The notes: generated from the sequence alone by a model not told the origin. Counted from the first letter of the stretch, positions 23,740-50,459 are shown. The stretch: 64,000 nt of DNA from Blasia pusilla (GCA_050084515.1 CM114271.1:9300001-9364000), one strand, 5' to 3'. Made by a program: numbers and translations.

Positions 23740-24556
23740 CTAGTAAGGTGCCGTCGATGATGCACAGAAAACAATTTGTTTGAAGAGTTACTGTTTAGTG
23801 AAGAGATTTTCATGTTCACTCATGATCGTGCCTCCTTCTATTTCCAACACTCTCGTGTTTCTGTAATATAATTTCAAATTTTATTTCATTCAAGTATTGT
23901 TTTATATACTACATTTCGTGTGTAGGCACCGTCCTTATTTGAATGTTCATCGCTTCCAAGGGTAATGTGGATGGAACTTCTCTTCCCTACTCTAGATAAT
24001 GCTTCATACAATTGATCGTGAAAAAATACATGAGTAGGCAAGTAAATGCCAACATTTTGCAAAGTTTGACCTTGAGACTTATTAATAGTCATAGCAAAAG
24101 TTGGGCGAATAGGGAATTGAAACCTACGTAAATCAAATGGCAGACCAGAATCCGATGCAATCAATGGAATCCGTGGAATAAAAACTCGATCTCCAATATT
24201 CTTCCCGATAATAATTTCGCCATCTATACAATGTTGCATAACTCCAGGAATCACCAATCTCATCCCGTGTGCTTGTCCTTGTGACCCATTCATGTTTAAA
24301 CGATGCGGAGGCCAGAAGGCAAGCATGTATTCAAAAATTCCATTGGATAGATATGACTCATCCCCTCATTTGGAATAGAGTCGACGCTAAGGTAAATATG
24401 CTCTTGTACAATGTGTAATGAATTCGTGAGAAACAATAATGTATTAGTAAAGATAGTCAGTAAAACAATCCTAAACCCTAAAGCCTAAGAGAAAAAAATC
24501 CATGTAGAAGATGTATGTAGGTTAAGAGAAAAAAATCCATGTAGAAGATGTATGTA
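23740..24556 (-). mobile_element. 3' fragment of an autonomous Helitron (PIF1 helicase C-terminus and CTAG end)
   Basis: ORF 23886..24326 has RRFQFPIRPTFAMTINKSQGQTL...LYEALSRV...TRNVVYK; inverted copy of ~49670-50459. Confidence 0.9.
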
Positions 24557-26253: not shown

Positions 26254-28340
26254 GGGGGCTGGTATTCTGGCAAGAGAGAGTAAGAGAGGAGAGGAAGAGA
26301 GGAAGAGAGGAAGAGAGGAGAGTCTCTCTTAAAAAAAAAGGGCCAAATCCGCCTCCTCTCTTCAAAACTTTTTGACAAATTTGAAATTTTCGTTTGCTTT
26401 CAAATTCAGGAAATCTTTACAAGAGAGTAGGTTGTGGTCCACATTTGGCCCTAAAAAAACCTCCTTTTTCCTGGGGGCGAAAGAAAAGTAGACATCATAA
26501 GACCACTACAATTTTTTTTCCATCACTCTCCATGTGAGCCTAAGTTTCTTAACATTACCTGTCTCGGTCTACAAAAAGCAGTGCCCATGGGTATTTTTGT
26601 TGGAGGACCACCCGGATGCCAACCTCTGTTTTTGCAGGGATTGTTGCCTGCATCATGGCCTCCCCTGAATTGCCCCATAACCAACTTTCTGTTGGTTATG
26701 AGTGGTTCTTTGAACTCACTCGTCATCGTCCGAGAGCTCTTGCAAAATTGCTTTCGGCCTTACCCTCCCAATTTTCGGAATCGTTGGAAGTGACAATGGA
26801 GTCACTACCAATGGTGGGTCTGGAACCAGAGCTCTCGGCTTCGGTGGAGAGTTGTACGCCCCAACGAGCCTTTCGTTTTCTGCCTTTGCCTCCTTGCAAA
26901 GGTCAAACAGTTCTTGCCTTCCCTCGAGGCAGAGAATGTTCCTGCCACTCTGCCAGGCGCCTTTGATACTTGCCCTTGAAAGTCCCACTAAGTCGAACAC
27001 CAAGTCACCCGGCCTTGAGCAGAGCTCGATGAGCGTTTGCATGGGGGCTGGCAATTTTTCCCTTCCTCCCGAAGGAAGTCTTGTCTTGCATGTAAATTCC
27101 CGAGGGGGAATTGTACAAACTATCTAAGTTGTACCCATCTGAGCATGGATCCACAGGATCCTGGATCTTGAACACATGGAAATTGTGCTCGGGCCGAACG
27201 AAGCAGTACACGTAGGAGTGGTCCATCTGTAAAGAAGCACGTTGGAAAGAATGTCAGCATAATGTGCAACACATCACCAAAGAAGTCAACTTGACCCTAG
27301 AGAACTTTTTCAATTACTAACTTTGGATCAACCCGTCGGGCTCTCCGTTGTTTTTGTCCATGAGGTTGCTGGCCTAGAGCAGCCCATGCTCCACTGAGAG
27401 CAACCCGTCGCTATCCGACGGGTTGCAACTTTCCGGAAACAGAGGGAAAAACCAAAAGCAACTCCAACCCGTCGGGTTCCGATGGGTTGCAGGTACACCA
27501 CGGTTTTCCCTGTGTTTCTGGGAAAGATGCAACCCGTCGGATAGCGACGGGTTGCTCTGAGCAGAGCATGGGCTGCTCTTAGCCAGCAACATGTCGCCTT
27601 CCAACGGGTTGCTCATGGAAAAAAACAACGGAGATATACTATCTGAAATTAACACTCATTGAGCCTTACCCGAATTTGAAAATATATTTGATATTATACT
27701 ATAGGAATTGAGCCTTACCCGAATCTGACTCGTCGCGGATCGGAGTGGGTACTCGTTTATTATGATCCACGATTGCGCCGTTCTCCACTTTAGCGACCTC
27801 TTGACGCACTGGAGGTTGAAGAGCTCGTCCTCGCTCCCTCCAATCAACACCAAGAAGCAGCCCCTGTCACTCATATAGCCGTCTACAAAGGAGAACAATA
27901 GCGCGATTTGGTCATAAGAGAGCGGCACATTCCACTCAGGTACCCCATCCGACGGATTCTCGCCCCACAGTCGCAAACCCGAGGGCAGATCAGCGATCAA
28001 GAGATCCACCGCAACCTCTTCAACCACTCCATTCACCGTCCTGGCAGCGTGCCCGTTTCGTTGGAGCTTCCGTCGCAGGGTTGTCAATTTATCAATGGCT
28101 GGTGTCGACGCTTGAGAACTGAAGCTTTTCAGCTCATCCAATAAAGGAGTGAACTGAAGGAGGACGCTTGTCTGGGTCGTTGTTTGTCTGTGTCTTCCCA
28201 AGGATGATGGACTGTATTCTCCTTGTGACAACCATGGCACCTCTCGCTTCCGCTTCTCCCGAGTCTGCGGACGGCTTGTCGGGGTCTCTATGACCTCAGA
28301 CTCTAGTGGGGTTTTCTTCGCCGAGGACCTGGTCCGACCC
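26254..28340 (-). mobile_element. ParB-MTase element copy B (MTase exons, intron, terminus; internally deleted)
   Basis: Terminus GGGGGCTGGTATTCTGG at 26254; ORFs 27656..28372 (DLLIADLPSG), 27005..27226 and 26716..27054 (CSRPGDLVFDLVGLS). Confidence 0.8.
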
Positions 28341-28924: not shown

Positions 28925-30640
28925 TGTTGGCTTCAAAGGTCCGCACAGCCAAAGACAAATCCACAGCGGGTCTCAAAGGCAAGGAGGGGAGGGAAGAATT
29001 TCAAGGCCGAGTCTTCCCAAAGATAGGCTGAAGATTCAAGGCCAGAGGCGGAATCGTCCGGGCGAGCGGGGAGAGAGGGTCGGACCAGGTCCTCGGAAAA
29101 AAAAAACCACACCAGAGTCCGAGTTCATAGAGACCCTGACAAGCCGTCCGCAGACTCGGGAGAAGCGGAAGCGAGAGGTGCCAGTGTTGTCCCAAGGACA
29201 ATATAGTCCATCATCCTTGGGAAGACATAGAGAAACAACGACCCGGACAAGCGTCCTCCTTTAGTTCACGAATTTACTGGATGAGCTGAAAAGCTTCAGT
29301 TCTCAAGCGTCGATACCCGCCATTGATAAATTGACAACACTAGGACGGAAGCTCCAACGAAACAGGCACGCTCCTTGGACGGTGAATGGAGTGGTCGAAG
29401 AGGTTGCGGTGGATCTCTTGATCGCTGATATGCCCTCGGGGTTGCGACTGTGGGACAAGAATCCATCAGATGGGGTTCCTGACTGGAATGTTCCCCTCTC
29501 TTATGACCAAATCGCGCTATTGTTCTCCTTTGCAGACGCCTATCTGAGTGACAGGGGCTGCTTCTTAGTGTTGACTGGAGGGAGCAAGGACGAGCTTTTC
29601 AACCTCCACTGCGTCAAGAGGTCGCTAAAGTGGAGGACGGTGCAATCGTGGATCATAAAAAATGAGTACCCACTCCTATCCGCGATGAATCTGATTCGGG
29701 TAAGGCTCAATTCCTGTAGTATAATCTCAAATATATATTCAAATTCGGGTAAGGCTCAATGCGTGTGAATTTCAGATAGCATATCTCCGTTGTTTTTGTC
29801 CGTGAGCAACCCGTCGGAAGGCGACGGGTTGCTGGCTTAGAGCAGCCCATGCTTGGCTAAGAGCAACCCGTTGGTTTCCGACGGGTTGCATCTTTCCCAG
29901 AAACACAGGGAAAACCGTGGTGTACCTGCAACCCGTCGGAACCCGACGGGTTGCGCCTTTGGTTTTTCCTCTGTATTTTGAGCCGCAACCCGTCGGAAAG
30001 CGACGGGTTGCTCTCACCAAGCATGGGTCGCTTAACCAGCAAGAACCCGCCGCCTTCCGACGGGTTGGTCATGGACAAAACAACCCGTCGAACTCCGACA
30101 GGTTGCTCCAAAGTTAGTAATTGAAAAAAGTTCTCTAGGGTCAAGCCGAGTTCTTTGGTGACGTGTTGCACATTATGCCAAGTTTCGACATTCTTTCCAA
30201 CGTGTTTTCTTACAGATGGACCACTCCTACGCCATCGCTTCGTTCGGCCCGAGCACAATTTCCAGGTGTTCAAGATCCAGGATCTTGTGGATCCATGCTC
30301 AGATGGGTACATCTTAGATAGTTTGTACAATTCCCCCTCGAGAATTTACATGCAAGACGATACTCCACTTCAAGAAGGAAGGGAAAAGTCGCCATCCTCG
30401 ATGCAAACGCTCACCGAGCTCTGCTCAAGGCCGGGTGACTTGGTGTTCGACTTAGTGGGACTTTCAGGGGCGAGTATCAAAGGTGTCTGGCAGAGTGGCA
30501 GGAACATTCTCTGCCTCGAGGGAAGGCAGGAATTGTTTGACCTTTGCAAGGAGGCAAAGGCAGAATACGAAAAGCTCGTTGGGGGGTTCATCTCTCCACT
30601 GAAGCCGAGAGCTCCTGTTCCAGACCCACCATTGGTAGTG
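28925..30640 (+). pseudogene. ParB-MTase element copy C (MTase exons only)
   Basis: DLLIADMPSG exon ends at 29699 (GTAAGG). After a palindrome intron and TACAG acceptor, the exon from 30216 has EKSPSSMQTLTELCSRPGDLVFDLVGLSGAS. Confidence 0.8.
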
Positions 30641-30649
30641 AAACCAAAA

Positions 30650-32219
30650 AAAATTTCGAGTCAAGCAACCCGTCGGACTCCGACGGGTTGCTTTGGGCAA
30701 AAAACATACTAAACCTGCGGTCAGTTGAACAACTCGTCGGAGTCCAACGAGTTTCTTTCTTCAAAAAACATCTTGAAAAGGCGGCGAGTCGAGCAACCCG
30801 TCGGACTCCGACGGGTTGCTTTGGGCCAAAAACTTATTAAATTTGTTGTCAGTCGAACAACTCGTCAGAGTCCGACGAGTTGCATTCTTCAAAAAACATC
30901 CTGAAAAAGCGTCGAGTCGAGCAACTTGTCGGAGTCCGACGAGTTGCGTTTGGCCAAAAGCATCCCAACAACAGTGCCGACCCAAACAACTTGTCGGAGT
31001 CCGACGGTTTGCAGCAAGAAGATACTCACGTGTTCATGGCATGCATTGCCATCTCCACCGTCGGGAGATGAGGGAATAGATGAAGGACCACTTCCTTCAC
31101 GCAAAAATGTGCCTCCAAGGAGTTGGGCCGCTCCTCTGCAAACTTGGTCCATGCCATGAACCTGTGATTTCCATCCCAGATGAAGAAATACAGATTCCTC
31201 ATCCAGCTGAATTCTGTGCCCTCTACTTGCCTTTTGAAATCCTGGTCTCTCATCCTCCAGAATGTGTCGAGCTTTTCCAAGTCCTCCTCCGTAACCAGGG
31301 CTTGGGTTCCATGCTCGTTGTAAGGCTGAACATAGAAGGGAGGAAAGCTATCGACATAGGATGTTGTCGCCGCTGATTGTTTAAGCTTCGCGATGTCCTC
31401 GTCGGACTGAATTTCGCGGACGTATTCCATTGTCCGCAATCGTCAGAGTGGAATCCTCTGGGCGTTGTGGCCCTCCATGAGTGCCATCTGCTTTACCACC
31501 TGTCAAGACCGGGACAAGATCAATAAGCTACACTGAATTCCCAATGAATTGCAATTCACATAATTCAAAAAACCCAGATCCTCTCTTACTCGCTCAAAAA
31601 TTGGGTCGGTTTCTTGACCAGTCAACTTGTCTGAGACAGAAGCGGGCAAGTCCACTGGGAACTCGTCGATCCGATAGAGGTTGATGTCTTCCGCCGGGCT
31701 TGGAGACGAGAATGACCGCTCTCCGGCTTCTTCGGTAATGTCCACCATCTCCACGTTGGCGGTCCTCATGACCTCATCGTCCGTGATTTGAACTTTTGGC
31801 GTTTCCGCTATGTTGATTGTGTCCCCGGACTTCATCGGGGACATTTCCCGCATCTCAACACTTTCGGTTGGATGGGCAAGGCTATTGTCAATGGCTATTG
31901 CTTTTTCCCTCCTCGCTTTAGCCAATTCTGCTCTCCTCACCGACGCGTCCAGACGCTTCTTTTCTCTCTTCTTGTCGGCGATCCTTTTCTTCAAGGCCTG
32001 TGACGTCTCAGCCTCTGCGTTCTGTCTATCGAGCGCCACTTGAACATGTCTTGCAAGAAGCTCCTTGTTGTGCATCTCCGCTTCCCTTTCCCGCTCCTTG
32101 ATTTCCTGGTGCCTAATTTCATTTGCCGAACGAGGCGCTGGAGATGCTGACGCAGGAGTCCTAATGGACTTTGGAGTGAAGTTCCCAGACTTGTTTGCTT
32201 GTGATTTTTTCCTCGTCAT
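30650..32219 (-). pseudogene. ParB-MTase gene copy D: 5' exons (charged coiled-coil N-terminus and ParB-like exon)
   Basis: Likely ATG at 32219 (MTRKKSQANKSG). A 90-bp intron 31589-31500 (GTAAGA...TTGACAG) removes the apparent stop. Exon 31499-31030 has WDGNHRFMAW, then donor GTGAGT and a palindrome intron. Confidence 0.75.
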
Positions 32220-32589: not shown

Positions 32590-33215
32590 CGTGAACAAAT
32601 GGCAACCCGTTGGAGTCCGACAGGTTGCGCGCCTCCGCCGTCCTGGGTACGTCAACACGTGCGCGAGCAATCCGTCGGAGACCGACAGGTTGAGCGCCTC
32701 CGCCGTCTTTGGACAAGAACGCGAGGTACCCGTGCAACCCGTCGGAGACCGACATGTTGCGCGCCTCCGCCGTCTTTGGACAAGAACGGGACGTACCCGC
32801 GCAATCCGTCGGAGACCGTTGGGTTGCACGCTTCCCTCGTCAAGGGTTAACAACGCAGGCTTCCCGCGCAACTCGTCGGAGTCCGACAGGTTGTACGCTT
32901 CCTTCATGTAAGCACCACAAGGCGAGGCCCTTGCGCAACCAGTCGAAGGGCGACGGGTTGCACGCCTTGCCATCTTTGGGCAAATAGGTGCGGCACCCGC
33001 GGAACTCATCGGGAACAGACAGTTTACATGCCTCCGGCATCTTTGGGCAAGAAGGAGCGGTATCCGAGGAACTCGTTGGAGAGCGACGGGTTGCCAGCTT
33101 CGACCATGTTTGCGTTTGAAGGTAAGGTAGAAGCGTGCAACCCGTGCGAAGCCGACGGGTTGCAGGCTTCGCTTAGCTTGGGTTAATTGTTGAGTTTCAA
33201 GGACTCCGACAGGTT
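32590..33215. repeat. Palindrome array in the intergenic region between the divergent ParB-MTase and GCM-like genes
   Basis: About ten imperfect CAACCCGTCG-N5-CGACGGGTTG units embedded in ~58-bp repeats (GCGCCTCCGCCGTCTTTGG). Confidence 0.8.
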
Positions 33216-34010: not shown

Positions 34011-36573
34011 ATCGTGGATCATAAAAAACGAGTACCCACTCCGATCCGTGACGAGTCAGATTCAGGTAAGGCTCAATTCCTGTCTTCAGATAGTATATCT
34101 CCGTTGTTTTTGTCTTTGAGCAACCCGTCGGAAGGCGACGGGTTGCTGGCTTAGAGCATCCCATGCTTGGATGAGAGCAACCCGTCGCTTTCCGACGGGT
34201 TGCATCTTTCCCTGAAACATAGGTAAAACGCCGGTGTACCTGCAACCCGTCGGAACCCGACGGGTTGGAGTTGCTTATGGTTTTTCCCTGTGTTTCTGGA
34301 AAGCTGCAACCCATCGGAAAGCGACGGGTTGCTCTCAGCCAAGCATGGGCTGCTCTAGGCCAGCAACCCGTCGACTTCCGACGGGTTGGTCATGGACAAA
34401 ACAACCCGTCAGACTCCGACATGTTGCTCCAATGTTAGTATTTGAAAAAAGTTCTCTAGGGTCAAGCGGAGTTCTTTGGTGACGTGTTGCACATTATGCC
34501 AAGTTTTTGACATTCTTTCCAACGTGCTTCTTTACAGATGGACCACTCCTACGTTTATTGCTTCGTTCGGCCCGAGCACAACTTCCAGGTGTTGAAGATC
34601 CAAGATCCTATGGATCCATGCTCAGATAAGTACAGCTTAGATAGTTTGTACAATTCCCCCCGGGAATTTACATGCAAGACGGTAGCCCACTTCTGGGAGG
34701 AAGGGAAAAGTCGCTAGCCTTGATGAAAACGCTCATCGAGCTCTGCTCAAGGCCGGCTGACTTGGTGTTCGACTTAGTGGGACTTTCAGGGGCAAGTATC
34801 AAAGGCGCCTCGCAGAGTGGCAAGAACATTCTCTGCTTCGAGGGAGGGCAGGAACTGTTTGACCTTTGCAAGGAGGCAAAGACATAGTACGAAAGGCTCG
34901 TTGGGACGTACAACTCTCCACCGAAGCCGAGAGTTCGGTTGCAGACCCACCATTGGTAGTGACACCATCGTCACTTCCAACGATTCCGAAAATCGAGAGG
35001 GCAAAGCCGAAAGTAATATTGCAAGAGCTCTCGCACGATGACGAGTGAGTTCAAAGAACTCAAGGACCCAGCTTGACTGCAGCGTTTGGAGTAGGGAGCT
35101 ATTTGATGATGAGGCAAAAGATTTCATAAAATAGATCAAATGTACAATTCCGAGCTTTTTTCGGATGTAATAAAGGAGAAGATTTTTTCGAACGATGGTG
35201 GTGCTTGTAAAAGTTTGCTGAAATTTTTTTATGTCTTTTCGAATGTGATCGTCTATGAACTCTGCGGACTTCTATTTTGCAACCCGTCGAATTTCTCCTG
35301 CTTGCAACTTTTCACTTTTTGACCACTGCACCTTTTTACCACTTCCAGGCAGCCTGTCGGATTCCGACAGGTTGCCTGATCGGACTCTTTCCCTGTTGGT
35401 CAAACTTAAGAGCCAGTCTGGCGGGCTTCTTCACTTTGGCACCTTCCCCTCAACTCGTAAAAGCAGGCGTAGGCTTCTTTTCTTCTCTCAGACGTGTTGG
35501 ATTCCTACTACCTGTGGGATTGCCATCATGGTATTACCAAGGACGAAGCACATATTGATACTGGATGGGTGTCACATTGTAGAGCGTACAAGATATACTG
35601 TCAAGGAAGGCGTTGGGACTCAAATCAGGTTACATACGACCGTTATGGTGTACCTAGGGGGGGCCAAGGCTCTCGAATTCGCCAAAATTTTTGATCCCCG
35701 TCTACAATCGGCCAGAGGAGCCACTTTGTATCCCAGGTCATTCCTTTTGTCCTGGAACCTAGGAGAGTTAGGAGTAAATTTGTAGATGACGAGGCTGAAG
35801 AAATCATAGACTAGGTCAAATGTACATTTCCGAGGTTCCTTCGGAGGTAATAAAGGATGAGATTTTCTCAACCGATAATGGTGTTTGTAAAAGTTTGTTG
35901 GAAAAATTTTTGGACTTGTGGATTGTGTTCTTTTAGCTACTCGGAATTACAATTTTGCAACCCGTATGATTCCGACGGGTTGCAACTTCAAGCTTTTTGC
36001 CCACTGCAACTTTTTAACCATTTCCAGGCAAGCTGTCGGATTCCGACAGGTTGGTTGCTTGAGTGATCGGACTCTTTCCCTGTGAGACCAACTTCTGACG
36101 CATTGTGGCGGGCTTCTTCTTAACATTTGGCTCGTTCCCCTACATTTGTCAAACCAGTTGTAGGCTTCTTTTCTTGTCTAAGATGTGCAGGATTCCTACT
36201 ACCTGTCGGATTGCCATTTCGGATTCCCAACCTGTTGGATTTTTGTGGGTGCAGGGTGGAAGGAAATCACTTCTAAAAATCTTTCCTTTCTTATGGTGAG
36301 CTTTCTTACGGGTTGGGAGGGGTGCAGTTTCTCGGTTTCTCAGCTTTAGGATCTGAATGAAGGGACATCAGTTCCTCTTTACTCCGGACAGCTAACAATC
36401 TTTTGGTTCAATTATTGTCTCATGTGTTCACATTTCACAAAGTTGGTCTTGAGCAGACACCACTCATAATCAACAGAAATTTGGTTATGGGGCAATTCAG
36501 GGGAGGCCATGATGCAGGCAAAAATCCTTGCAAAAAGAGAGGTTGGCATCGTACCGATGCGCATCCGAGTGGT
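34010..36573 (+). mobile_element. ParB-MTase element copy E (last intron, last exon from 34538, 3' region); terminus resumes at 46326-46654
   Basis: Colinear with ~3110-5580 and 6275-6470. Interrupted by the Gypsy at TGGT, continues TGGTCCTCCAACAAAAATACC at 46326 and ends GAATACCAGCCCCC at 46654. Confidence 0.85.
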
Positions 36574-37156
36574 TGTCGTGCGAATCCACATCGTCATACA
36601 ACATACATCGCTGACATACCATACGCACATACATACATAACATAGACGAGAGTATCCACAAACGCAAGTGTACCACAACTGAAATCCGTGAAAGACCTAC
36701 TGTCATAAAACACGTTTACAATCACATACAATCGAGCCAAACCCACTCCACGATGGGAGAATCTAGGTCAAAGCTTGCGGGAAACACCATAGCCAAGAGC
36801 TCTACTCACTACCAAGGCTAACTCCCAACGCAACAGACTCAACTCAAAGAACTGACTGTTCTTTGAGGGCAAGCCACCTTATATCCTCCAACCTAAGAGC
36901 GGGCCCTACTAGGAAAGTCACCCCCAACTGAGTAACCCCCAACCCTATGTATGGAACCACATCTCTACCAAGCCACTATGGTCCTACATAAGGAATGGCC
37001 TCTACCAGCACACCATACTCTACAAAATAATCCGTATGGTCATGACAGCTGTCGTGCGAATCCACATCGTCATACAACATACATCGCTGACATACCATAC
37101 GCACATACATACATAACATAGACGAGAGTATCCACAAACGCAAGTGTACCACAACT
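36574..37156 (-). repeat. 3' repeat block Y-X-Y: Y 37050-37156, GC spacer, X 36681-37047, Y 36574-36680
   Basis: The two 107-bp Y copies read identically; the 367-bp X matches 45959-46325 with only a few substitutions. Confidence 0.92.
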
Positions 37157-37324
37157 CGCCCCCTAATCGGCGGTTAGGTCCTCTAACTCCAGGTAGCCCT
37201 ATACATCTACTACATGCTATACACCTTCTTGGGTGCTCGAATCAAGGCCGGGTGCTAGGTTGCCCCATCGTTAGTCGCACATCTGTAATCCATATCATGC
37301 AAAGATCAAGTCATCTACCTCTCC

Positions 37325-37470
37325 TAAGTACATCGAGGACAAACCCACCTTCCAAAGAGGGAACAACATCCAAACGTGAGTCAAACACATCATGTGCCAA
37401 CCCCTAGAACACCGATCACACACCAACATACGGGTTGCGTTACGTGAGACCCACACAACATGCACCTCAA
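37325..37470 (-). pseudogene. PHD finger at the integrase C-terminus
   Basis: Reading across small indels gives CMLCGS..RNATRMLVCDRCSRGWHMMCLT.LDVVP..GRWVCPRCT*, a C4HC3 pattern. Confidence 0.82.
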
Positions 37471-40400
37471 GCTAGCACGTATCATGGCTAAGCTTGGATC
37501 AACAAAGACCATCCACATTTGGAAGATGACATGGCGCACAATTACGCACATGGTCCTTCCAAACAACTCCATCACGACCCTCCAACATGAGAACTCCGAA
37601 GCTAACACCTCACGCACTCGTAAAATAGTGCGGCTGCCGTCACATCCAACGTTGTCGGGCAACTGCTGCAAATAGACATAGTCCCCACATGGAACCTACT
37701 TAATCGATGGTCGATAACCTCCACTGAATGGTTGCATACCGCAACGTATCCCCTGTGTTGAGCAATGGCAAGATTCTCAAAGGCCGTTGGCATAACTCTC
37801 GAAAGAGCTCCGCTTGCCGAGAACACACCCTCATCCACATCTCGGGTCATCAAGGTTCACCACCTCACTAGACTCCCGATTTAATTGCCGGCAAGTCCGG
37901 ATCTCGGCCGTATAACATAAAATAAGGTGAGAAGGAAGCCAAGGATGCTTGGCGATCGAACCTATACCCCATGGCTAACCATGGCAATCGAATATCCCAG
38001 TCTCCAAGATGCCCTTCAGAGGCCATACTTGCGCAATGCCCTCTTCACCGTCTGAACCACACGCTCAGCCAAACCATCCGCCTCTGGATGATCTCGAGAC
38101 GTGGTCCGATGATCAATCAACGCCTTGTCACACAAGACCTGAAACTCACCCTCAAACTCTGTACCCTGGTCGGTCAGCACTTCAGCTGGTGCACCAAAAT
38201 GACTAAGCACTCTATCCACAAACGCATACGCCGTTCCCTCACTCGCCTTGTCCGGTAATGCCACCAACTCAATCCACTTGGAGAAGTGCTCCACCATCAC
38301 CAACACATATCGATGATGTCGTACAATCAACGGTAACGGTCCCGCAAAGTCCACACTCCAACGGTAACCCAACCCCATAATAGGAAAGGGGTGTAATTGT
38401 GGTGTAGGGGCATTAAATGATGCCCTCACCCGATCACAAACCATACAACGTGACACCAACTGCTGCACCTGAGTATGCATGCCACGCCACCAATACTGGC
38501 CAAGGAGTAAGCTATACGCACGCTTTACCCCAAAATGTCCCAACTCCTCATGGGCATGTCGCACAATGCGCTCTCTCTGAGCCAAATGTGGCACTACTCA
38601 GTACTCTACCATCCTCCCACACGCGGAGAATATGTGTTCCCTCCAATCGATACCTCTTAGCACGTTGAAGAACACGGTCTCGCTCCTTGGCACTCACTAT
38701 GCCTGGCACCCTACCGGTCAGAGGAACTTCAACACCAACGCATCATCATGAATATCATGCTGATCCGTACCACCATCTCCAACCTTAGGATCTCAAGGTG
38801 GCCATCTACCCTCGACTAGAGTAAGATATCATGTGGTCCTCCATACTAGAGTCCACCTAACCAACATAAAAGGCGGATGCATGCCAACCTGGCACCATCT
38901 CCTCATCAACCTCGCCATGCCATCTAGCCTGTTGTATCCTCTTGGCTAGTACATGGGTTCCTACTCAACCCATCAAAGATCAAGGTTGGCAACTCCAGGT
39001 CTATGTACCACCCGGAAGTCATACTCTGTAAGATAAGAGCCCACCGTGCAAGCTTCCCCTGTAAGCTTGTCCGACTCCATCAACCACTTGAGCGGTTGGT
39101 GATCAGAATAAGGGTAAACGGGTGCCAAACAAGTAACACCTAAAGTGTGCCACCCACACCTCTTGCCAAGCACTCTCCCTCATATGAACTATAGCGCAAC
39201 TCCGCTGCATTATTCGAACGACTTGCATAGGCCACCACAAACTCCATGTGCTCATCATCATGTTGTGTCAACACCGCTCCAAGTCCCAACCTACTCCAAT
39301 CGTGTGTGTAATCGAAATGGGCGCCCTCGATAGGTCTCCTCAAGATAGGCGCCGCCACCAACTGGGCCTTAAGCTCCACAAAAGCTCTCTCCTAATCATC
39401 TCCCCAGTGCCACTCTTGATCTGATTTCAGCAATTGGTTCAAAGGCTTTGCCATAGCACTAAATCCCTTCACATATCTCCGATAGTAGTTCGCCAATCCC
39501 ATGAATGCTCGAACTCTACTCACATCTACCGGACGCGGAATAAGTGCAATAGCCTCCACCTTTGCTTGCTGAACTCCCAAACCACCTGGATAGATCACAT
39601 GACCCAAGTACTCAACATCCTCATGGAAGAACTTACACTTCCTGGATACTAATGTAGACCATGAGCTTTCAACCGCTCAAACACCATCTGCAAATGTATC
39701 TGATGCTCCTCCACCGTGTTACTGAACACCAAGATATCATCAATGTAACACCGAACAAAATCCAACCCTGCTAGGATCCTGTCCATCACTCTTTTAAAGT
39801 CGGCAGGTGCATTCTTCAACCCAAAGGGTAAGAATTTCCACTGGTACAAACAATCCTTGCCATGAGAGTTGACACCCTAAAATGTTGTCTTGGCCTTGTC
39901 ACTCTCCCGAATCGGCAATTGATGGTATCCTACCCGAAGATCCAAAGTACTGAAAATCTTTGCTTGTCCCACCACATCAAAGATCTCCTCAGGTGTAGGC
40001 ATGGCATACCTATTGGCGTTGGTTTGCCGATTGATAGGACGGTAATCTCCACACATCCGCCTATCCGTGTAGTTGCCATGCATATCCTTTTTAGCAGGCA
40101 TGACAGTGGCTGATGCATACTCTCCATGCGACAACTCCACTAATCCAGCCTCCAAAAGGTCCAACGTCCTACTCTGAATCAAGTCCCTCTCCATATCACT
40201 ATATTGATAGGGACGACGGAAGATTGGCGTATCACTAGCCAAATCAATCCGTATACCGGGTCCGACCAGAGAACCCAACTCCTTCATGCTAAAGGCAAAA
40301 AAACTCCTATAAGCACGTAGGAACTGTGTCAAGCGTCGTTTCTCACCTCCCGTAAGCTTGGGCCCAAGTAATGGCTCCCAAGTCTCCTCCACTGGCATAC

Positions 40401-40669
40401 TAGAGGGAGAGGACGATGCCATTGGCTGCCACGCAACCCCCTCACAAGATGGTACACCCTTAGCTACACCATCATCTGAGCAAATAACTCCTCCACCAGC
40501 ATGAGCAACCAACTCCACATGCCCAGCCATTACATCCCATTTACTCCAAGGATGCAAAATACTACTCTCCTCGCCCTCAGCCGATGCCTCTACCGTCCCG
40601 GTAGCCATCGAGCTCATTACAAGGGGTGGAAGACCCACAGACATAGTCCGAAGTCGACGCTGCTCGGCC

Positions 40670-41640
40670 ATACCAAGACTCAAAATCCAAGTCAAACAAT
40701 TCACTCCATGGCTGACCCAACACATGACGTCGTGAAGCCTCGAAATAGAAGCAACGCATTTGTCACACCAAGAGCAAATCCCATCGCACGCTCTCTCTCA
40801 TCAGCGTTAGGCTCCACCAATTTTCGCACATGAGAATCCCATACAAGCCCCGGACCACCTTCCCTGCAGGCATGTGACGAGGGAAAACTCACAAATGTGG
40901 GTAGTGCCATCCTAGGCTGGCCCACACGGTTCACCACTGCCATGGGTGACCAATCAATAACCCTCACCACTTGAGAAAGTCGCCAAAGATATCCAAGATA
41001 CTATCCCTTTGTAAAGGCGAGGATCCCGCCTGACTTTGCGCATCATATGCTCGACGTAGAACCTCCCTAGGCAACAAGTTTGTCCACCACAAGCGTGGAC
41101 GATGTGCACGCGAGCCAACTCACGCTGCATCCAACAACACCGCTGGTCCAATCCAAGAGCGCACCTCATGAACACTCGCCATCATCCGGGTCCGAGTGTC
41201 ACCCAACAATGGAACATTCTCCAGAATGTAAGCTAGAGCACGTGCCTGATGAACCTGAAGATGTCGTAACATCCGTAACATCTCCCAAAACAATCGAGAC
41301 CTAGGGTCATGTAATCCCTCACCCCGACCAAAGACGTGTATGACCACGACATGGCCATCCAAAGAATCACCAAATCCACAGGACCAATTCTCTCAAGGTC
41401 CTGCGCCTTCAACAATGCAATGTGTGATGGTAAAGCACGCTGGTACCCACGAATAGCCGATGGCGGCAACAACTCAGGGTATCTCGCATCAATCGACCAA
41501 TATGTCGAGATGAGACTCGGGCCGTCTCATCTCGCTCCACATACACGTATCTCCCTTGCACAGAATACCGGCCTGCAACATGAAGCCAAACCAGTGCTAA
41601 TCCCACCAAAGAGATCTAACACACAAATACCCTCCGCGGA
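40670..41640 (-). pseudogene. Cytosine-5 DNA methyltransferase domain (DNMT3/DRM-like) inside pol
   Basis: Motifs in order: I VLDLFGGISTG; IV GPVDLVI.GWPCRG; GLHDPRSRLFWE; VI YILENVP; VIII VGSRAHRPRLWWTNL; IX EPNADERERAMGF; X RRHVLGQ. Confidence 0.9.
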
Positions 41641-44600
41641 TCTTGCCATACAATAGGTGTAGTATCCAAAGGGGATAACCTAAGCTGGGCGAAGTAGGAG
41701 TCGTGTGGGGCCTCCTCTTCCTCGTGAGGTATAATGACCTCACACCAAGCCTCTGCACTAGGCGATCGACCTCTGCCGTAGTGCACCGCTTTGAACTCCA
41801 AAGTGGCACATCCAACGATGAGGATGCCTTTGCTGCAAAAATAGGGACCTCCTCTTCCTCCTCATGCGCAGGAGAATCCAGCGTAAAACATTACCCTCCA
41901 AAAGTCTCTGGCCAAGTGACTACTCCACTAAAACCACCACGCAGATGATGCTAACATCTTTGTGGGGAAGACCCTCTGGTCGAGCCCAGAAATAAATTTC
42001 ATAGGAACTTGGCTCATACGTCCATCCTCGGATCGCCAACCTGGTCTATAAGATTTGTCTCGATCCAAGTAATCCATCGAAAACCCATCGGTACAATCGC
42101 TCCTCCAACTAGTACATCATACGACTGGCCGATGTGACTACCATGAATACTCCCAACGGGAGCTATCGATCGCATGATCTGGTCTCAATCAGCACAAAAA
42201 CTTCTCCGTGTCATGAATTGAGACCTATCATTGGCTCCTCCAAGTGATGTTTGAACTGGAATGGGCAAGGCTCAAGCTCGACCTCCGAATACCCAAACCA
42301 ATACATGCCGCCTTTCCCAACATCAAAGGTTGGGCACCGAGTCTAACAAGACTCTATCCGGTCTATACACTGCCTGTAGGACTCACCAATCGGAAGATCC
42401 CTCCGGTTGTCCAACATACATACACCGGTGTAAGCCTCTCACGATCAATGGCTAGCCGGGCCGGTAATGCATCCATCTTCGCCGCCGCCGCCAAGTAGCA
42501 CCGGGTACTCAATGCTACTCGACATAGAGGGTCGCTCCACCGCAACACCCTCATCCACCTCAACACGTGTAACGAAGAATACCCCACGTTCACACAACGT
42601 GTTCGCTAATCAAATACAGGAGCTAAGTCAACTCCTAAAGCCATCGCCTCGTGGCGAAAACAATGGGGATCCCAACACCGGTTGCCATCCGCGCAATCTT
42701 TTGCATTGATCTTTGCATCCGTGTCTACTACACGCAATGTAGATGCCTCGGTCCCCCTTTGTCGGCTCAATAGGTCGCGAGGAACCATGGATGGAGTCCT
42801 AAGCACCTCAGACAACACGAATGATTGGGGAAGCCTAGCTCGCCTCCCAGCCTCACCCCTCTGTGGGTCCAACTCACAAGAGCACCACGTGGCTCGACGC
42901 CGAGTGGCTCTCTCTCGAATCGCACTGATGCCTCAACTTTTGTCTTGCACTCGCCATATAAGAGAGATCATCCTCCATAAGAGGTGGAAGCCCCTGCTCC
43001 CGAACTCCTGATCTATCTTTGGATACCGACCATAGTAGCCAACTTCGCTCCAATCTGCTCAATCCGGCAGCCATAGGCGACTTGTCGTAGTGGTAGGGGT
43101 AGCCACCGTGAGGCTCTCCAACCACCTGGTCCACCTCTACCACCCCTACCACCTCTACCACCTCGGTCTCTCGGAGCTACTCCACCACGGCCACGGCCTG
43201 ATCTCAACTCTGGATGGAGATCAAAGCAACGCCTCGACGATGACCTAGTCTCCCGCAATGATCACACTGAGTTGGGGCCGACGAGGCCCATCCTCCAAAG
43301 TCCGTCTCCCATCCTCTTGGGGACAAAACTTCCTAACATGATCACCTCCACATGTCCAACATGATCGCCCTGCTGGGGCAGCAAATGAAGGCAATGGTCT
43401 CTGCACAAATGTCCTCTAGGACTTGACTGAGGTCGCGTGTACCCCACGACTCCCACTACTACTACCACCACCACTACTACGAGGCGTGAGGTGGGCGGTG
43501 AACCAGAAGTAGTAGTTGTATCCCCTCATTGAATGCGGATGTCACCACTCTCTCCTTCACCATGTTAAGCTCAATCTTCTCAGATAAAGCAAACACATGG
43601 GTCAATGTGGGTGAATCATCACTCATAAGAGTAGCATCACGTACCCTACGGCGCAAATCTCTGTCCAAGATCCCGTATTAAAATCTGGATCGCTGATCCT
43701 CAGTCACACCTTGGGTAATCTGAAATCAAGCGCCGATATGCAGTGTATGCCTCACGAAGACTCTCACCGTCTTTCGCTCAAAGTCCTAAAGATTCCTCAA
43801 CTTCTCTGTCTTCACTCCTGATAGTTCTTCTTCAACCTCTTGAAGAACTCGCAACTGGCTGAACGATGGTGGGGCACTAGTACCTCCACTAGTACCCCCA
43901 CTAGTACCTCCACTGGTACCCCACTCAAACTTGTACTGCATTACCACTCAACGTCGGGTGGCCTGGCATAGTAGGAGCACTACTACCAATACCACCATGG
44001 GTGATAGACACATAGCCTGGAGACCAATATTGTCTCCATGCCTCAATCTCAACAACATGGTCCTTCCTAAACTCATGGTAATCATCCATGGGTGGTCCTT
44101 CCAAGTCTTTGAAACAACCCCTTCCAAGCCAAGAAGGGTGTAAACAACGCGTGGCGTTCAACATCTACATATCACACCACGTATCAAACTCTTGCATGAA
44201 GTCCTCCAACTCAATGGTGCCCATCGCACCGAGTATCGTCGTGGGCCCTTCATGGCCCCATATCCACCGTCCATGTCCCAAATCAATGGAGCCGCAACAC
44301 TCGATAACAACGTAGAAGACTCGGTGTTTGGAACACCTGGTCCTCCTCTTCATCAACCGCTCGGAAGTGGAAAAGGTAGCCGATACCTAAATCCATTCCG
44401 TGTGAAACCACCCCTTTATCCGCACCACGGTCCCCAACCGGACCACTCGGCGACTCGTGATGACCAACGCCGATGCCGCACCACCACCAAATTACCCAAG
44501 TGACGTCGATGTCGCTCTACTATTGTAGCTCTACTAGCTATGGGTGTAGGCAATCTAACCTCTCATCACCACAAGAAGTCTCCCGTCTCATCTGGTCATC

Positions 44601-45958
44601 ACTCCGGCCTCACTATCGTGAGAGCACACAGAGTAACACTACTCTCGGAAATCAGCGTCAACCCTAACAATGGGCGCAAGCAAGCAAAAGCACGATGGAG
44701 GGGATCCATACAGGAAGTCCAACGACAACCCTCCAACCGCAAATGGAAATCAAGGTAACACAATCCACCAAACGTGGTGCCCCCGAATCCACAAAACCCA
44801 CCACACAATTCTAACGCAATAGCTACTCCGCCGCGGGTCGATGACGTGCTAGTCGAACTCGCATCACCTGAAAATATTACTTGCATGGAGAGGCTACACC
44901 GTACTATGCGCTAGAGGTACATCAACCAAAAACCTGAGATGCATAAAGCGCCTAACACATCTCCGAACAGCACCAAATGAGCTACAACAACAGACACCGG
45001 CATAGTTAAGAACTCAAAGATTAAGCGTCCTCCAGCGAGAATAGCCCAAAGATGGGTGACCAATTATGCAAAACTCAAATCCCAAATCCTGCAAAAATTG
45101 CCTCATGCCCAAGCAAGCAAGCTTGCTTGCTTGCTCCTTGCTCCTTACTCCGCCTCTCACGCCCACTCGCCCCGAGCTACCACGAGTTGCCTCGAAGCCT
45201 CAAAATGCTCGAGACATGCCCCGTTCGCCACGCTTCGCCATGCTTCGCTATGGAGAGAGGTCCAACCAGGCGCCCCAACGGGATAGGCGTCTCAAAAATG
45301 AACGAAGTCACCAACCAACCAGCCCCTCCGATCCGGCTGCCCACCATAGCAGACCTCGAGCTAGTCCGCAAAATTTCGATCAGAAATTACTTCACAAATA
45401 CGTGACCGAAATCAAATCTGTTTCAATCAGAATTCAATTGACCACCATATCTATCTCTCCACAAAAAATCAGCTACAACCGAGCTCTGTACTCCGAGCTA
45501 AAAATCAAACAAACTTTTGTCCATACACCTCGAATCGCAAAATCCGCGGCGCTTCCGCCAAGTTTCATGCACGCAGAAATCCGCAACGCTCCACACACTC
45601 GAGCAGATAGATTCAGAGGAGATCACAATACGAGTAGCAACAGGAACCTCTCACCCGATCTGGATGAACTTCAACACAACTTCCGCACTCCAAGCTCTCC
45701 ACATCAGAAAACTGTCGAACACGACCAGAATCTTCAATGCTTGATAACTTCCAACTCCCTTGACGAAATCCGGCGATCTATAGCGCGTTGGAAAGCTCTC
45801 AGCAAGGCTCTTCTTTCCCAACCAAAGACTCACCAGATTACCACCTCCAACATAGGCCACAAGACACAAACATCCACGGCTGAGTACACAATCAGCCCTA
45901 ATCCGATCCTACTGATCTACAATCGAAGCTACCATCGATCTACTCCAATTCTTTGAGT

Positions 45959-46325
45959 GAAATCCGTGAAAGACCTACTGTCATAAAACAAGTTTACAAT
46001 CACATACAATCGAGCCAAACCCACTCCACGATGGGAGAATCTAGGTCGAAGCTTGCGGGAAACACCATAGCCAAGAGCTCTACTCACTACCAAGGCTAAC
46101 TCCCAACGCAACAGGCTCAACTCAAAGAACTGACTGTTCTTTGAGGGCAAGCCACCTTATATCCTCCAACCTAAGAGCGGGCCCTACTAGGAAAGTCACC
46201 CCCAACTGAGTAACCCCCAACCCTATGTATGGAACCACATCTCTACCAAGCCACTATGGTCCTACATAAGGAATGGCCTCTACCAGCACACCATACTCTA
46301 CGACATAATCCGTATGGTCATGACA
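45959..46325 (-). repeat. 5' terminal repeat X of the DNMT-Gypsy
   Basis: Starts TGTCATGACCATACGG on the minus strand; matches 36681-37047; not followed by Y or by a recognisable PBS. Confidence 0.9.
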
Positions 46326-46654
46326 TGGTCCTCCAACAAAAATACCCATGGGCGCTGCTTATTGTAGACCGAGACAGGTAATGTTAAGAAACTTAGGCTC
46401 ACATGGAGAGTGATGGAAAATTTTTTGTAGTGGTCTTATGATGTCTACTTTTTTTTCGCCCCTAGGAAAAAGGAGGTTTCTTTACGGCCAAATGTGGACC
46501 ACTACCTACTCTCTTCTAAAGATTTCATGAATTTGAAAGGAAACAAAAATTTCAAATATGTCAAAAAGTTTTGAAGAGAGGAGGCGGATTTGGCCCTTTT
46601 TTTTTTAAGAGAGACTCTCCTCTCTTACTCTCTCCTGCCAGAATACCAGCCCCC

Positions 46655-48033
46655 TCCGAACAGCACCAAATGAGGTACACCAGTGTGTACACTGACATAG
46701 TTAAGAACTCAGCAGTTAAGCGTCTTCCAAGCAGAATAGCCCAAAGATGGGTGACCAGTTATGCAACACTCAACTCACAAATCTAGCAAAAATTGCCTCA
46801 CACCCAAGCAAGGAAGCTTGCTTGCTTGCTCCTTGCTCTTTGCTCCTTACTCCGCCTCTCACGCCCACTCGCCCGGCGGTACCACGAGTTACCTTGAAGC
46901 ATCGAAACTCCGAGACATGCCCCGTTCGCCACGCTTTTCCATGCTTTGCTATGAAGAGAGGCCCAACTAGGGCGCCCCCAACAACATAAGGCATCTCCAA
47001 CAACGGACGAGTCACCAACCAACCAGCCCCTCCAATCTACTGTCCACCATAGCCTGACCTTGTGCTAGTGCGCAAAATTTCGATCAGCAATAACACCACA
47101 AATCCTCAACCAAAATTGAATATGTTTTCACCATAATTCAATAGGCCACCATAGCTATCTCTCCACAAAATAATAGCTACAACCGAGTGGTGTACTCCGA
47201 GCTAAAAATAGACAAACTTGTTGTTCATAGACCTCCAAAATCGCAAATCCGACAGCGCTTCCGCCCAAATTCATGCACACAGAAATCCGCAACGCTCCAC
47301 ACACTCAAGAAAATATCTTCACGTGAGATCACAATACAGGTGGCAATAAGAACCTCTCACCCGATCTGGATGAACTTCAACAAAGATTCCGCACTCCAAG
47401 CTCTCCACATCCGAAAACCGTCGAACACGAACCAGAATCTTCAATCCTTGATAACTTCCAACTCCCTTGACGAAATCCGGAAATCTAAAGCGCGTTGGAA
47501 AGCTCTCAGCAAGGCTCTTCTTTCCCAACCAAAGACGCACCAGATTACCACCTCCAACATAGGCCACAAGACACAAACATCCACGGCTGAGTACACAATC
47601 AACCCTAACAAGATCCTACTGATCCACGATCGAAGCTACCATCGATCTACTCCAGTTCTTTGAGTGAAATCCGTGAAAGACCTACTATCATAGAATCACA
47701 TATAGAATCACATACAATCAAGCCAAACCCACTCCACGATGGGAGAATCCAGGTCGAAGCTTGCGGGAACCACCATAGCCAAGAGCTCTACTCACTACCA
47801 AGGCTAACTCTCGACGCAACAGGCTCAACTCAAAGAACTAACTATTCTTTGAGTGCACTCCACACTATATCCTCCGACCTAAGAGCGGGCCCTACTGGAA
47901 AAGTCACCCTCAACGGAGTAATCCCCAACCTTATGTATGAAACTGCATCTCTACCTAGACACTATGGCCCTACATAAGGTACGGCCTCTACTAGCACACT
48001 ATACTCTACGACATAATCCGTATGGTCATGACA
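46655..48033 (-). mobile_element. Second, more diverged 5' fragment of the DNMT-Gypsy family (X repeat plus leader)
   Basis: Colinear with ~44962-46325; ends CATGACA at 48033; cut at 46654 by the DNA-element terminus. Confidence 0.88.
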
Positions 48034-50459
48034 GAGAATGTCATTGGTTGAGATTACTTCTCCATCATGTTCAAGGAGCAATGACATATGAATATCTGAG
48101 AATTGTCAATGGAATATTATGTCCAACAGTCAAGGAGGCTGCTATCCAAATGGGACTTCTGGAGGATGATAGGGAAGTGTTCTCTTGCTTTCAAGAAGCT
48201 TTTATGATCCTTACAAGTTCGTCACTTCGCCGTATATTTGCAATCATTCTAGTGTACAACACACCTGCTCAACCTACAACCTTATGGACTCAATTCTTGG
48301 ACCCATTGGTAGAAGACCTCTTATATGAACAACGTAAGGTAAGAGTTCATTACCTTCACTCCTTACATCATTAGTTTTCTTCCTAATTGTATCATCTTTT
48401 GAGCATTCAAGAAACTAATCATGATTTGGGCTTTTCTAGACCGGTTGCATTGTAGAAAACATGAATTCCTAATCTTCCTATTGATGACCATATCATTAAT
48501 AATGCATTGTTGGAAGTTCATTATTTATTTACAAGATCAAGGAAAGAGACTATCTCACTTTCGTGACAAATGCCCAAAGTTAATTTCCAAAGCCTTCACT
48601 CACATTCATATTTGGAGGAGCAAGAACTATTATATGATACGGAAGAATTATTTGAGCAAGTAAAATTGGGAGATACATGTCTGAATGAAGGACAACGTGT
48701 TATTTAGGATGCTATACATGATGAGCTTGATCAAATATGCATAAATGCTCCACCATCTTCAAAAGTATTTTTCATCAATGGTCCTGATGAAACAGGAAAG
48801 ACATTTCTATATAATCTTCCCCTTGCAAGCGTAAGGAGTGCAAGAGGTATAGCATTGGATGTAGCATCATATGGAATAGCTGCTTTATTGTTAGACGGAG
48901 GACGTACTTCACATTCGCGTTTCAAGATCCCCATCAATCTTCATGAGAGCTCTACTTGCAAGTAAGTTTCATCAACCACTTTACATGCAATTGTATTAAT
49001 GCATAAAGCTCAATTAGTCCAATTATTACAACTTCTAATTTATTTTCCTTTGTCATTGATAGTTTATTAGTCGATAGTGATGGAGCACGCTTAACCCGTG
49101 AGGCAATGCTCACTATATGGGACAAAGTACCTATGACTCATCGTCATGCATCCAAGGCTGTGAATCGTACTTTACAAGATATTATGGGACTTCTTTCTGA
49201 TAATCTACGGCAAATACCATTTGGCGGAAAACTTATGATATTTGGTGGTGACTTTTCTCAAGTGTTGCCAGTTATTCGTCATGGGGACCAGCCACAAATC
49301 ATCCAAGCTACCATAAAGAGATCACCTATTTGGTCTAATGTAAAGGTCATGAAGTTGACAACCAACATGCGAGTTCAAAGGTTGGAAGGTCATTTGTGTG
49401 TTGAACGACAAGGTTTTGCTTATTGGTTATTGGAAGTGGGCGAGGGTCGTGTACCTTTGCATCCAAATTTGGGAGAAAAATTACCATCTGAAATTGTTAC
49501 TGATAGTAATAAGAAATCTAACCTTATTGATTTCATCTATGGCAATTCTCCTAGCCAATTTTAGGACATTGGGTTCTTAAGAGATACAGCTATTTTGACT
49601 CCAAGAAATAGAGACGTTTATGACATAAATGCATATGTTATGTCTCAGTTTCCTGGACAGGTAATCTCTTAACCTACATACATCTTCTACATGGATTTTT
49701 TTCTCTTAGGCTTTAGGGTTTAGGATTGTTTTACTGACTATCTTTACTAATACATTATTGTTTCTCACGAATTCATTACACATTGTACAAGAGCATATTT
49801 ACCTTAGCATCGACTCTATTCCAAATGAGGGGATGAGTCATATCTATCCAATGGAATTTTTTAATACATGCTTGCCTTCTGGACTACCTCCGCATCGTTT
49901 AAACATGAATAGGTCACAAGGACAAGCACACAGGATGAGATTGGTGATTCTTGGAGTTATGCAACATTGTCTAGATGGCGAAATTATTATCGGGAAGAAT
50001 ATTGGAGATCGAGTTTTTATTCCACTGATTCCATTGATTGCATCGGATTCTGGTTTGCCATTTGATTTACGTAGGTTTCAATTCCCTATTCGCCCAACTT
50101 TTGCTATGACTATTAATAAGTCTCAAGGTCAAACTTTGCAAAATTTTGGCATTTACTTGCCTACTCATGTATTTTTTCACGATCAATTGTATGAAGCATT
50201 ATCTAGAGTAGGGAAGAGAAGTTCCATCCACATTACCCTTGGAAGCGATGAACATTCAAATAAGGACGGTGCCTACACACGAAATGTAGTATATAAAACA
50301 ATACTTGAATGAAATAAAATTTGCAATTATATTACAGAAACACGAGAGTGTTGGAAATAGAAGGAGGCACGATCATGAGTGAACATGAAAATCTCTTCAC
50401 TAAACAGTAACTCTTCAAACAAATTGTTTTTCCTGTGCATCGCACGGGCACCTTACTAG
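48034..50459 (+). mobile_element. Autonomous Helitron remnant (PIF1-type helicase exons, 3' hairpin, CTAG)
   Basis: LRLLLHHVQG, decayed Walker A FFINGPDETGKTFLY, IWDKVPM, FGGDFSQVLPVI, KLTTNMR, FAMTINKSQGQT; introns present; 3' CCTGTGCATCGCACGGGCACCTTACTAG|T. Confidence 0.92.

Follow-up and report, generated by a model that had tools for sequence, protein, structure and literature searches.

The moss and liverwort relatives of a decayed retrotransposon in Blasia pusilla carry a DNMT3-type cytosine methyltransferase as part of their own coding region. A 64,000-nucleotide (nt) window of the B. pusilla genome (GCA_050084515.1 CM114271.1:9300001-9364000; positions are counted from its first letter) contains, on the minus strand, a single Ty3/Gypsy long terminal repeat (LTR) retrotransposon at 36.7-46.3 kb. 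At 40,670 to 41,640, within this element, an original prediction had recognized a cytosine methyltransferase embedded in pol. This stretch is very probably the decayed DNMT domain of a dead copy of a bryophyte Ty3/Gypsy family. The best explanation overall, which we consider probable, is a dead copy of a family with the layout Gag (CCHC)-protease (PR)-DNMT, then an in-frame stop, then reverse transcriptase (RT)-RNase H-integrase.

The methyltransferase domain and its assignment

Motifs were read from a three-frame translation of the minus strand of the window, and all of them fall inside 40670-41640 in the unpermuted order I, II, IV, VI, VIII, IX, X. Motif I reads VLDLFGGISTGLA (41622-41584) and is followed by a motif II-like YVYVERDETA (41549-41520), motif IV as GWPCRGH (41360-41340, with the PC at 41354-41349), motif VI as ILENVP (ENV at 41221-41213), motif VIII as SRAHRPRLWWTN (41113-41078), motif IX as EPNADERERAMGF (40814-40776) and motif X as SRRHVLGQ..NCLTWI (40735-40684). 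The predicted succession of C5 cytosine methyltransferase (C5-MTase) motifs I, IV, VI, VIII, IX and X was thereby recovered over 41622-40684. The catalytic residues, which had been described as retained, are present letter by letter save that PCQ reads PCR, but this copy cannot make the protein: the reading path changes frame eight times (near 41584, 41561, 41485, 41362, 41332, 40987, 40750 and 40712) and meets one in-frame stop (41122-41120).

The methyltransferase match in the window lies far beyond chance. The Marchantia protein P0033 aligned to the window by tblastn at E 1.4e-108, and a 90-amino acid (aa) piece (41120-41392) matched 60 proteins with E down to 5e-29 (201 candidates). This piece was the only unbroken one to match Pfam DNA_methylase (PF00145), at E 0.0023 and 17.9 bits against a gathering cut-off of 22, which the intact relatives P0003, P0035 and P0132 exceed with 42.7, 46.1 and 58.4 bits.

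Sequencing or assembly error was rejected as the source of the frame changes because the two LTR pieces of the element (45958-46325 and 36680-37047) align without any gap (98.6% identity, 5 mismatches in 368 nt; self-blastn). At the site of the window stop, the letter differs in other copies, which account for 1367 of 2330 summed depth in sequencing run X1 and for 1911 of 1923 in run X3, and one-base length differences among copies occur at several of the frame-change places (e.g. 40985-40989 and 41362). Since copies differ at these sites, part of the damage is private to a minority lineage of copies.

Intact P0003 (368 aa) was compared with all PDB sequences using phmmer and matched DNMT3A (6e-12), DNMT3B (1.4e-9) and DNMT3C, followed more weakly by tobacco DRM (1.2e-8), Arabidopsis DRM2 (1.7e-4), HhaI (4e-3) and HaeIII. 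A family profile built from 20 sequences (A2) and searched against the PDB likewise matched DNMT3A (4e-25), DNMT3C (2e-23) and DNMT3B (6e-23) best, with plant DRM1/2 (4onj, 7l4c) as the second-best group (2e-15 and 2e-11), then HhaI (1e-8) and DNMT2 (1e-7); at E<=1e-3 the matches included none named DNMT1 or chromomethylase. The DNMT3A/3B/3C catalytic domains (2qrv, 6w89, 6u8p, 8tci) have the same motif order as the family domain and similar wording in motifs IV-VI and IX-X, whereas the family domain has longer II-IV and VIII-IX stretches (P0003 alignment) and sits inside a retroelement polyprotein. Canonical host DNMT3 is a multi-exon gene with N-terminal PWWP and/or ADD reader domains. Pfam scans of the window and its relatives found no PWWP or ADD domain and only Gag, PR, RT, RNase H and integrase as neighbors, which argues for a DNMT3-type domain and not a host DNMT3 gene.

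DRM is a plant family derived from DNMT3. Its matches to the window family span only the motif I-VI half, and its motifs VI-X stand ahead of I-V, whereas the family domain runs from I to X. Because the motif order is unpermuted, a DRM identity was rejected, so that of the predicted "DNMT3/DRM-like" label only the first half stands. By sequence comparison, the window domain and its family are DNMT3-type unpermuted C5-MTases; clade membership rests on the PDB match scores and on the published placement, by tree, of element-borne Klebsormidium nitens copies in the DNMT3 clade (PMC5890265).

Family layout, range and constraint

A metagenome scan seeded with P0003 returned 160 relative-encoding stretches, from which 80 loci were retained. 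Using blastn, 74 of the 80 aligned to the window element, and 6 loci were colinear with it over ~7 kb. The whole DNMT aligned in one piece in 55/80 loci, and in 32/80 a single alignment ran from the start of RT through the DNMT into PR at 74-82% nt identity. The DNMT belongs to the family layout. Its predicted place on the pol strand between PR and RT agrees with the order obtained by Pfam and tblastn, and the alignments show it in other family members and exclude a local insertion.

All named relatives are bryophytes (Marchantia polymorpha, M. paleacea, Riccia sorocarpa, Calypogeia fissa, Sphagnum fallax, S. troendelagicum and S. jensenii). Judged by these protein sequences, DNMT3-carrying Gypsy elements reach land plants, which widens their range as had been anticipated. 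In organism A, 21143 contigs of the best run (X1) aligned on the 1.1-kb DNMT stretch, so the family is highly repeated there; in X14 and X16, guessed to be RNA runs, 5 contigs each aligned on that stretch, mostly 90-95% alike. Among the long proteins, P0033 (1278 aa; a cluster of 18 member sequences) is Gag-PR-DNMT, P0254 (2318 aa) holds CCHC, protease, DNMT, RT, RNase H and integrase in one protein, and P0073 (2188 aa) is another open long frame.

Fifteen sequences, the most distant at 38% identity, all keep C140 and Q141 (PCQ), E183 (ENV), H222 and E321-R322-E323, and in alignments that reach 34-38% identity the residues specific to the chemistry show little or no variation. WPCQG occurs in 46/60 and LENV in 53/60 of the protein matches of the 90-aa piece. 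Ratios of nonsynonymous to synonymous substitution (dN/dS) were calculated as pairwise medians over ORF (open reading frame) pieces of the loci, using pairs with dS 0.2-0.6 that are not independent of one another. The medians were 0.46 for DNMT (98 pairs), 0.39 for RT (154 pairs), 0.34 for PR (7 pairs), 0.35 for Gag (5 pairs), 0.36 for integrase (28 pairs) and 0.24 for RNase H (29 pairs); the DNMT evolves under constraint similar to that on RT. In close pairs (dS<0.2) all domains drift to 0.5-0.67, as expected for dead copies. The window compared with three loci gave 0.30-0.36, a value of little weight given saturated dS and the inclusion of badly framed pieces.

A conserved stop between DNMT and RT

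The DNA of 53 loci was aligned with locus L008 as reference (54 rows). At codon 85 past motif X, in frame, 40/54 rows have TAG, 13/54 TAA and 1/54 GAG, and the codons after the family stop are CAA CCC ATG GCA. In L008 the stop lies at 11336-11338, with the RT ORF directly 3' of it in the same frame. The window has TGG (40431-40429) at this site, where 53/54 rows have TAG or TAA, so that its DNMT tail frame continues into RT (ORF 39877-40797). Proteins P0033, P0017 and P0029 (Marchantia), P0005, P0030 and P0035 terminate 65-87 aa past motif X; K. nitens P0132, a record marked partial, and its kin terminate 1-3 aa past the DNMT.

The conserved stop, together with an RT ORF in the same frame, points to the family layout Gag-PR-DNMT / stop / RT-RNase H-integrase. 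The methyltransferase accordingly closes a Gag-PR-DNMT first ORF and is predicted to be a Gag-side product, not a Pol-side one; the earlier picture of a domain inside one continuous pol has to be revised on this point. The arrangement suggests that Pol is made through occasional stop-codon read-through. The TAG-CAA-CCC context resembles the UAG-CAR-YYA leaky stop of plant viruses. No clear RNA structure was found 3' of the stop using RNAalifold on 45 distinct sequences (-24.5), and the single-sequence energy after the L008 stop (-41.2, against a shuffle mean of -36.5 with standard deviation 3.4) showed nothing clear. A description of the conserved stop was not found in the literature searched.

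Anatomy and decay of the window element

Feature coordinates are collected in Table 1. PR, RT, RNase H and integrase occur in this order between direct LTRs (Pfam, tblastn, self-blastn), as in Ty3/Gypsy elements, and P0048 is 79% identical to the window integrase over 136 aa (tblastn).

Table 1. Coordinates of element features in the window
Feature	Position	Strand	Basis and remarks
5' LTR	44961..46325	-	1365 nt; begins TGTCATGACC at 46325; self-blastn
GAG-like region	43230..44274	-	several frames, broken; tblastn of P0033 residues 1-344
Protease-like region	41990..42370 (about)	-	YDVLVGG at 42121; tblastn of P0033 and P0024
DNMT3-type C5 cytosine methyltransferase domain	40684..41631	-	motifs I to X; pseudogenized
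TGG codon at family stop site	40429..40431	-	85 codons past motif X
Reverse transcriptase (RVT_1)	39640..40380	-	Pfam E 3e-17 for 39649-39876; tblastn of P0024; ORF list
RNase H, fragmented	38927..39640	-	Pfam RT_RNaseH_2 E 2e-17; tblastn
Integrase (H2C2 zinc-binding and rve core)	38007..38792	-	Pfam Integrase_H2C2 1.4e-15, rve 8e-14; tblastn
3' LTR remnant	36680..37047	-	first 368 nt only

The TGTCATGACC start of the 5' LTR recurs at 37047, in the 3' LTR remnant. The final 15 bases of the 5' LTR span (44975-44961) are TGGTGCTGTTCGGAG, which, judged by eye, looks like a putative primer-binding site rather than LTR. The end of the 3' LTR, where one half of any target-site duplication would adjoin, is missing.

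Decay extends over the whole coding region. No intact CCHC knuckle was found in 41640-44300 by regular-expression scan, and a motif scan of the same interval found no D(S/T)G protease active-site motif left in any frame; P0035, P0132 and P0254 have Pfam Asp_protease_2 at the place matching the PR-like region of the window. The RT is broken by a stop at 39879-39877 (ORF list), and RNase H and integrase are split into pieces. No chromodomain was matched by Pfam 3' of the integrase in the window ORFs at 37390-37856 or in L008. The window copy is a functionless relic, unable to encode any protein.

Base composition is strongly asymmetric along the element, its LTRs included (window 36000-48000): on the sense strand G exceeds C by ~0.24 and T exceeds A by ~0.09. 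The same skew was found in 6/6 full-length related loci (L008, L060, L032, L078, L064, L062) and not in their flanks; it is a trait of the element family.

The element lies among other repeats. An exact 107-nt direct duplication (36574-36680 = 37050-37156) stands on either side of the 3' LTR remnant, and the remaining ~1 kb of that LTR is gone, its place being taken by sequence repeated at 6273-6472. Another LTR-like sequence (46654-48033) shares 87% identity with the 5' LTR at 44961-46325 and also ends in TGGTGCTGTTCGGAG, and between it and the element lies a 311-nt repeat (46326-46636) that recurs at 6469-6776 and 26300-26610. The repeats around the element form a nested or rearranged repeat cluster.

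Elsewhere in the window, ORF pieces with a PIF1-like helicase domain, as in Helitron-type elements, occur at 47922-50312 and 23886-24365 (Pfam PIF1 E 6e-33 at 49007-49564), and 49665-50000 matches 24198-24529 in reverse at 97%. Two Ty1/Copia-type copies lie at 9126-11419 (-) and 59571-61864 (+), with pieces of gag, zinc knuckle, SH3-like and RVT_2 domains. At 30657-30976 and 32657-33124 there are tandem arrays whose periods are 64 nt and 67 nt; they lie within another repeated segment (30044-30614 versus 34365-34936, about 89-94%).

Published elements and the wider superfamily

The closest published counterpart is KnitGypsy-Dnmt3 of K. nitens, a Gypsy element with Dnmt3-type domains in its Pol ORF and Ka/Ks (the dN/dS equivalent) <0.2 (de Mendoza et al. 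2018, PMC5890265). It is likewise of Ty3/Gypsy type, with an unpermuted DNMT3-type domain in the polyprotein. K. nitens P0132 matches the family profile at E 1.8e-107 and, with CCHC at 297, Asp_protease at 598-691 and DNMT from 833, has the family order CCHC-PR-DNMT; its domain is 37% identical to the bryophyte domain. A DNMT3-type domain within the polyprotein after Gag and PR was found in the window, in 32/80 loci and in P0132, and the window family is a land-plant member of the known Gypsy-DNMT3 kind. The two differ in host, an alga versus land plants, and in their repeats, which a figure legend describes as arranged as in DIRS for KnitGypsy-Dnmt3 (PMC5890265), whereas the window element has direct LTRs. 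SymbioDIRS-Dnmt3 and SymbioLINE-Dnmt of Symbiodinium are also retrotransposon-borne C5-MTases; they belong to other retroelement classes (DIRS, LINE) and are described as independent acquisitions (PMC5890265).

In the accessible part of the supplement to that 2018 survey, Physcomitrella is the sole bryophyte listed (PMC5890265), and a 2019 opinion paper holds such transposons not to be present in land plants "such as tracheophytes" (PMC6338049). Later mentions of a "streptophyte" Gypsy-DNMT3 merely cite the 2018 work (PMC12344493; bioRxiv 10.64898/2026.05.21.726589), and a search of the supplement of PMC12344493 gave no match. Retrotransposons bearing a DNMT were not named for Marchantia, Sphagnum or any other land plant in the papers reached by a full-text search, with most subscription journals and PDF supplements outside its coverage.

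A HMMER search with P0003 of 1.84 billion representative proteins gave 4268 matches at E<=1e-3, of which 965 reached <=1e-10 and 269 reached <=1e-30. Many are 1000-3400 aa long, and the 269 are clusters at 50% identity. The Protein Atlas returned nothing beyond generic DNA_methylase clusters. When 25 long proteins were examined by Pfam, the domain stood after RT/RNase H and/or before integrase in 20, usually with a C-terminal PHD finger, before RT in 2, and DNMT was found alone in 3. Among 262 domain proteins, 103 were of the RNase H-DNMT-integrase side, 20 of the DNMT-RT side, and 139 showed DNMT alone. Named examples of the RT-RNase H-DNMT-integrase type are the "pol" of Scenedesmus sp. PABB004 (KAF8056149, P0111) and a Haematococcus lacustris protein. 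These algal Gypsy elements share the Ty3/Gypsy backbone and a homologous DNMT (35-41% identity, E down to 1e-55), and differ in having the enzyme between RNase H and integrase and a PHD finger C-terminal to the integrase (e.g. P0111). No paper on them was found in a literature search with most subscription journals outside its coverage.

Polyproteins of this algal type with a PHD finger 3' of the integrase include P0066, P0076, P0082, P0086, P0103, P0109, P0111 and others, and in P0076 this region also holds a Tudor domain. In chromoviruses the place of the PHD finger is taken by a chromodomain.

For the tree, 142 candidates were thinned at 70% identity to 113, RT-RNase H-DNMT-integrase rows were randomly thinned from 87 to 29, and 55 domain rows were used; the tree is unrooted. 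The RT-RNase H-DNMT-integrase type (29/55 rows) forms one side of a branch with Shimodaira-Hasegawa-like approximate likelihood ratio test (SH-aLRT) support of 99, and all PR-DNMT types lie opposite. The bryophyte clade groups with unnamed Gag-PR-DNMT proteins that are ~50% identical (SH-aLRT 98). The K. nitens clade is on a long branch that does not adjoin the bryophyte clade, with SH-aLRT of only 75 and 86. Neither the conserved stop nor the superfamily's size and two layouts were found in print.

Proposed function and alternatives

In intact members, the enzyme would be made as the tail of an abundant Gag-PR-DNMT precursor, with occasional read-through giving Gag-PR-DNMT-RT-RNase H-integrase. 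The protease would cut out the DNMT3-type enzyme, which would be packaged with the RNA and travel with the particle, many molecules per particle owing to its Gag-side placement. Free of the PWWP/ADD gating of host DNMT3, it might then methylate cytosines de novo, most likely at CG, on the new complementary DNA (cDNA) of the element or on its fresh insertion. Methylation of cDNA or insertions has been proposed for DIRS elements, and SymbioDIRS-Dnmt3 domains of Symbiodinium methylated CG de novo in yeast (PMC5890265). Self-methylation of element cDNA is offered as a tentative reading, somewhat short of even odds.

Several points weigh against it. Methyltransferase activity of the family is only predicted, and assays of the K. 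nitens domain in yeast detected no methylation, a result their authors call inconclusive (PMC5890265). An enzyme in the Gag ORF suits roles other than cDNA methylation equally well. The 80 loci were retrieved through the DNMT itself, so that sister elements lacking it could not appear. Only three of them (L007, L008, L064) hold the entire domain in one ORF, the longest DNMT-holding ORF is 467 aa, a 250-aa ORF is absent in 10 of 11 divergent loci, and neither the 80 loci nor these 11 yielded a bryophyte-branch copy that is both full-length and intact. The DNMT dN/dS, from non-independent pairs, is only moderate and rises to 0.67 in close pairs.

Capture of a host DNMT3 fragment by or beside this copy only would fit its position in a nested, rearranged repeat region, but such a private insertion is ruled out by the one-piece alignments of the 80 loci (32 from RT across the DNMT into PR, 55 with the whole DNMT) and is at odds with the same order in named Marchantia, Sphagnum and K. 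nitens proteins; we regard it as extremely improbable. It is also improbable that the family domain is a pseudo-enzyme, retained to bind DNA or chromatin or in a structural role, for instance as a particle or integrase tether. The inactivity of K. nitens domains in yeast (PMC5890265) would be explained in this way, and an element with no chromodomain after its integrase might need some other targeting part; the near-invariance of the PCQ Cys, the ENV Glu, the RxR arginines and the motif I FGG down to 34-38% identity speaks against it.

Two further alternatives keep the enzyme active and change its substrate. If it deposited 5-methylcytosine on the genomic RNA of the element or on its transfer RNA primer, its translation ahead of the stop with Gag, an RNA-binding protein, would make sense, and RNA methylation has been raised for LINE-borne DNMTs (PMC5890265); yet the best profile matches are the DNA enzymes DNMT3A/B/C (down to 4e-25), against 1e-7 for the RNA enzyme DNMT2, and we give this little credence. 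That the enzyme acts in trans, with host chromatin, rival elements or invading DNA viruses as its targets (the last an antiviral idea from PMC6338049), is unlikely, if less so. First-ORF placement would supply far more enzyme than RT or integrase, a ratio deduced from the layout, and the family is very abundant in organism A; against this, a DNMT3 domain set free without gating would burden the host, and most of the copies found are dead.

Implications

Retrotransposons that bear the enzyme used by their hosts to silence them present a paradox, and DNMT-bearing retrotransposons have so far been reported only from dinoflagellates and one charophyte alga. The present family is abundant in liverworts and mosses, Marchantia polymorpha included. 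For this species mutants, methylomes and transformation exist, which makes the question of function testable in a land plant. The printed statement of absence from land plants, hedged as "such as tracheophytes" (PMC6338049), is corrected, and the conserved stop provides a concrete clue that the enzyme is on the Gag side.

A broader reading, which we put forward as doubtful, is that the window element is a leaf of an old DNMT3-Gypsy superfamily with two enzyme positions, spread over the green lineage at least, that the streptophyte/bryophyte enzyme is made in bulk with Gag and protease before a leaky stop, and that some liverwort or moss copies may be active. If such copies are active, land plants, the genetic model Marchantia among them, have a working de novo methyltransferase encoded by a transposon, with possible effects on the silencing of the transposon itself and on the methylome of its host.

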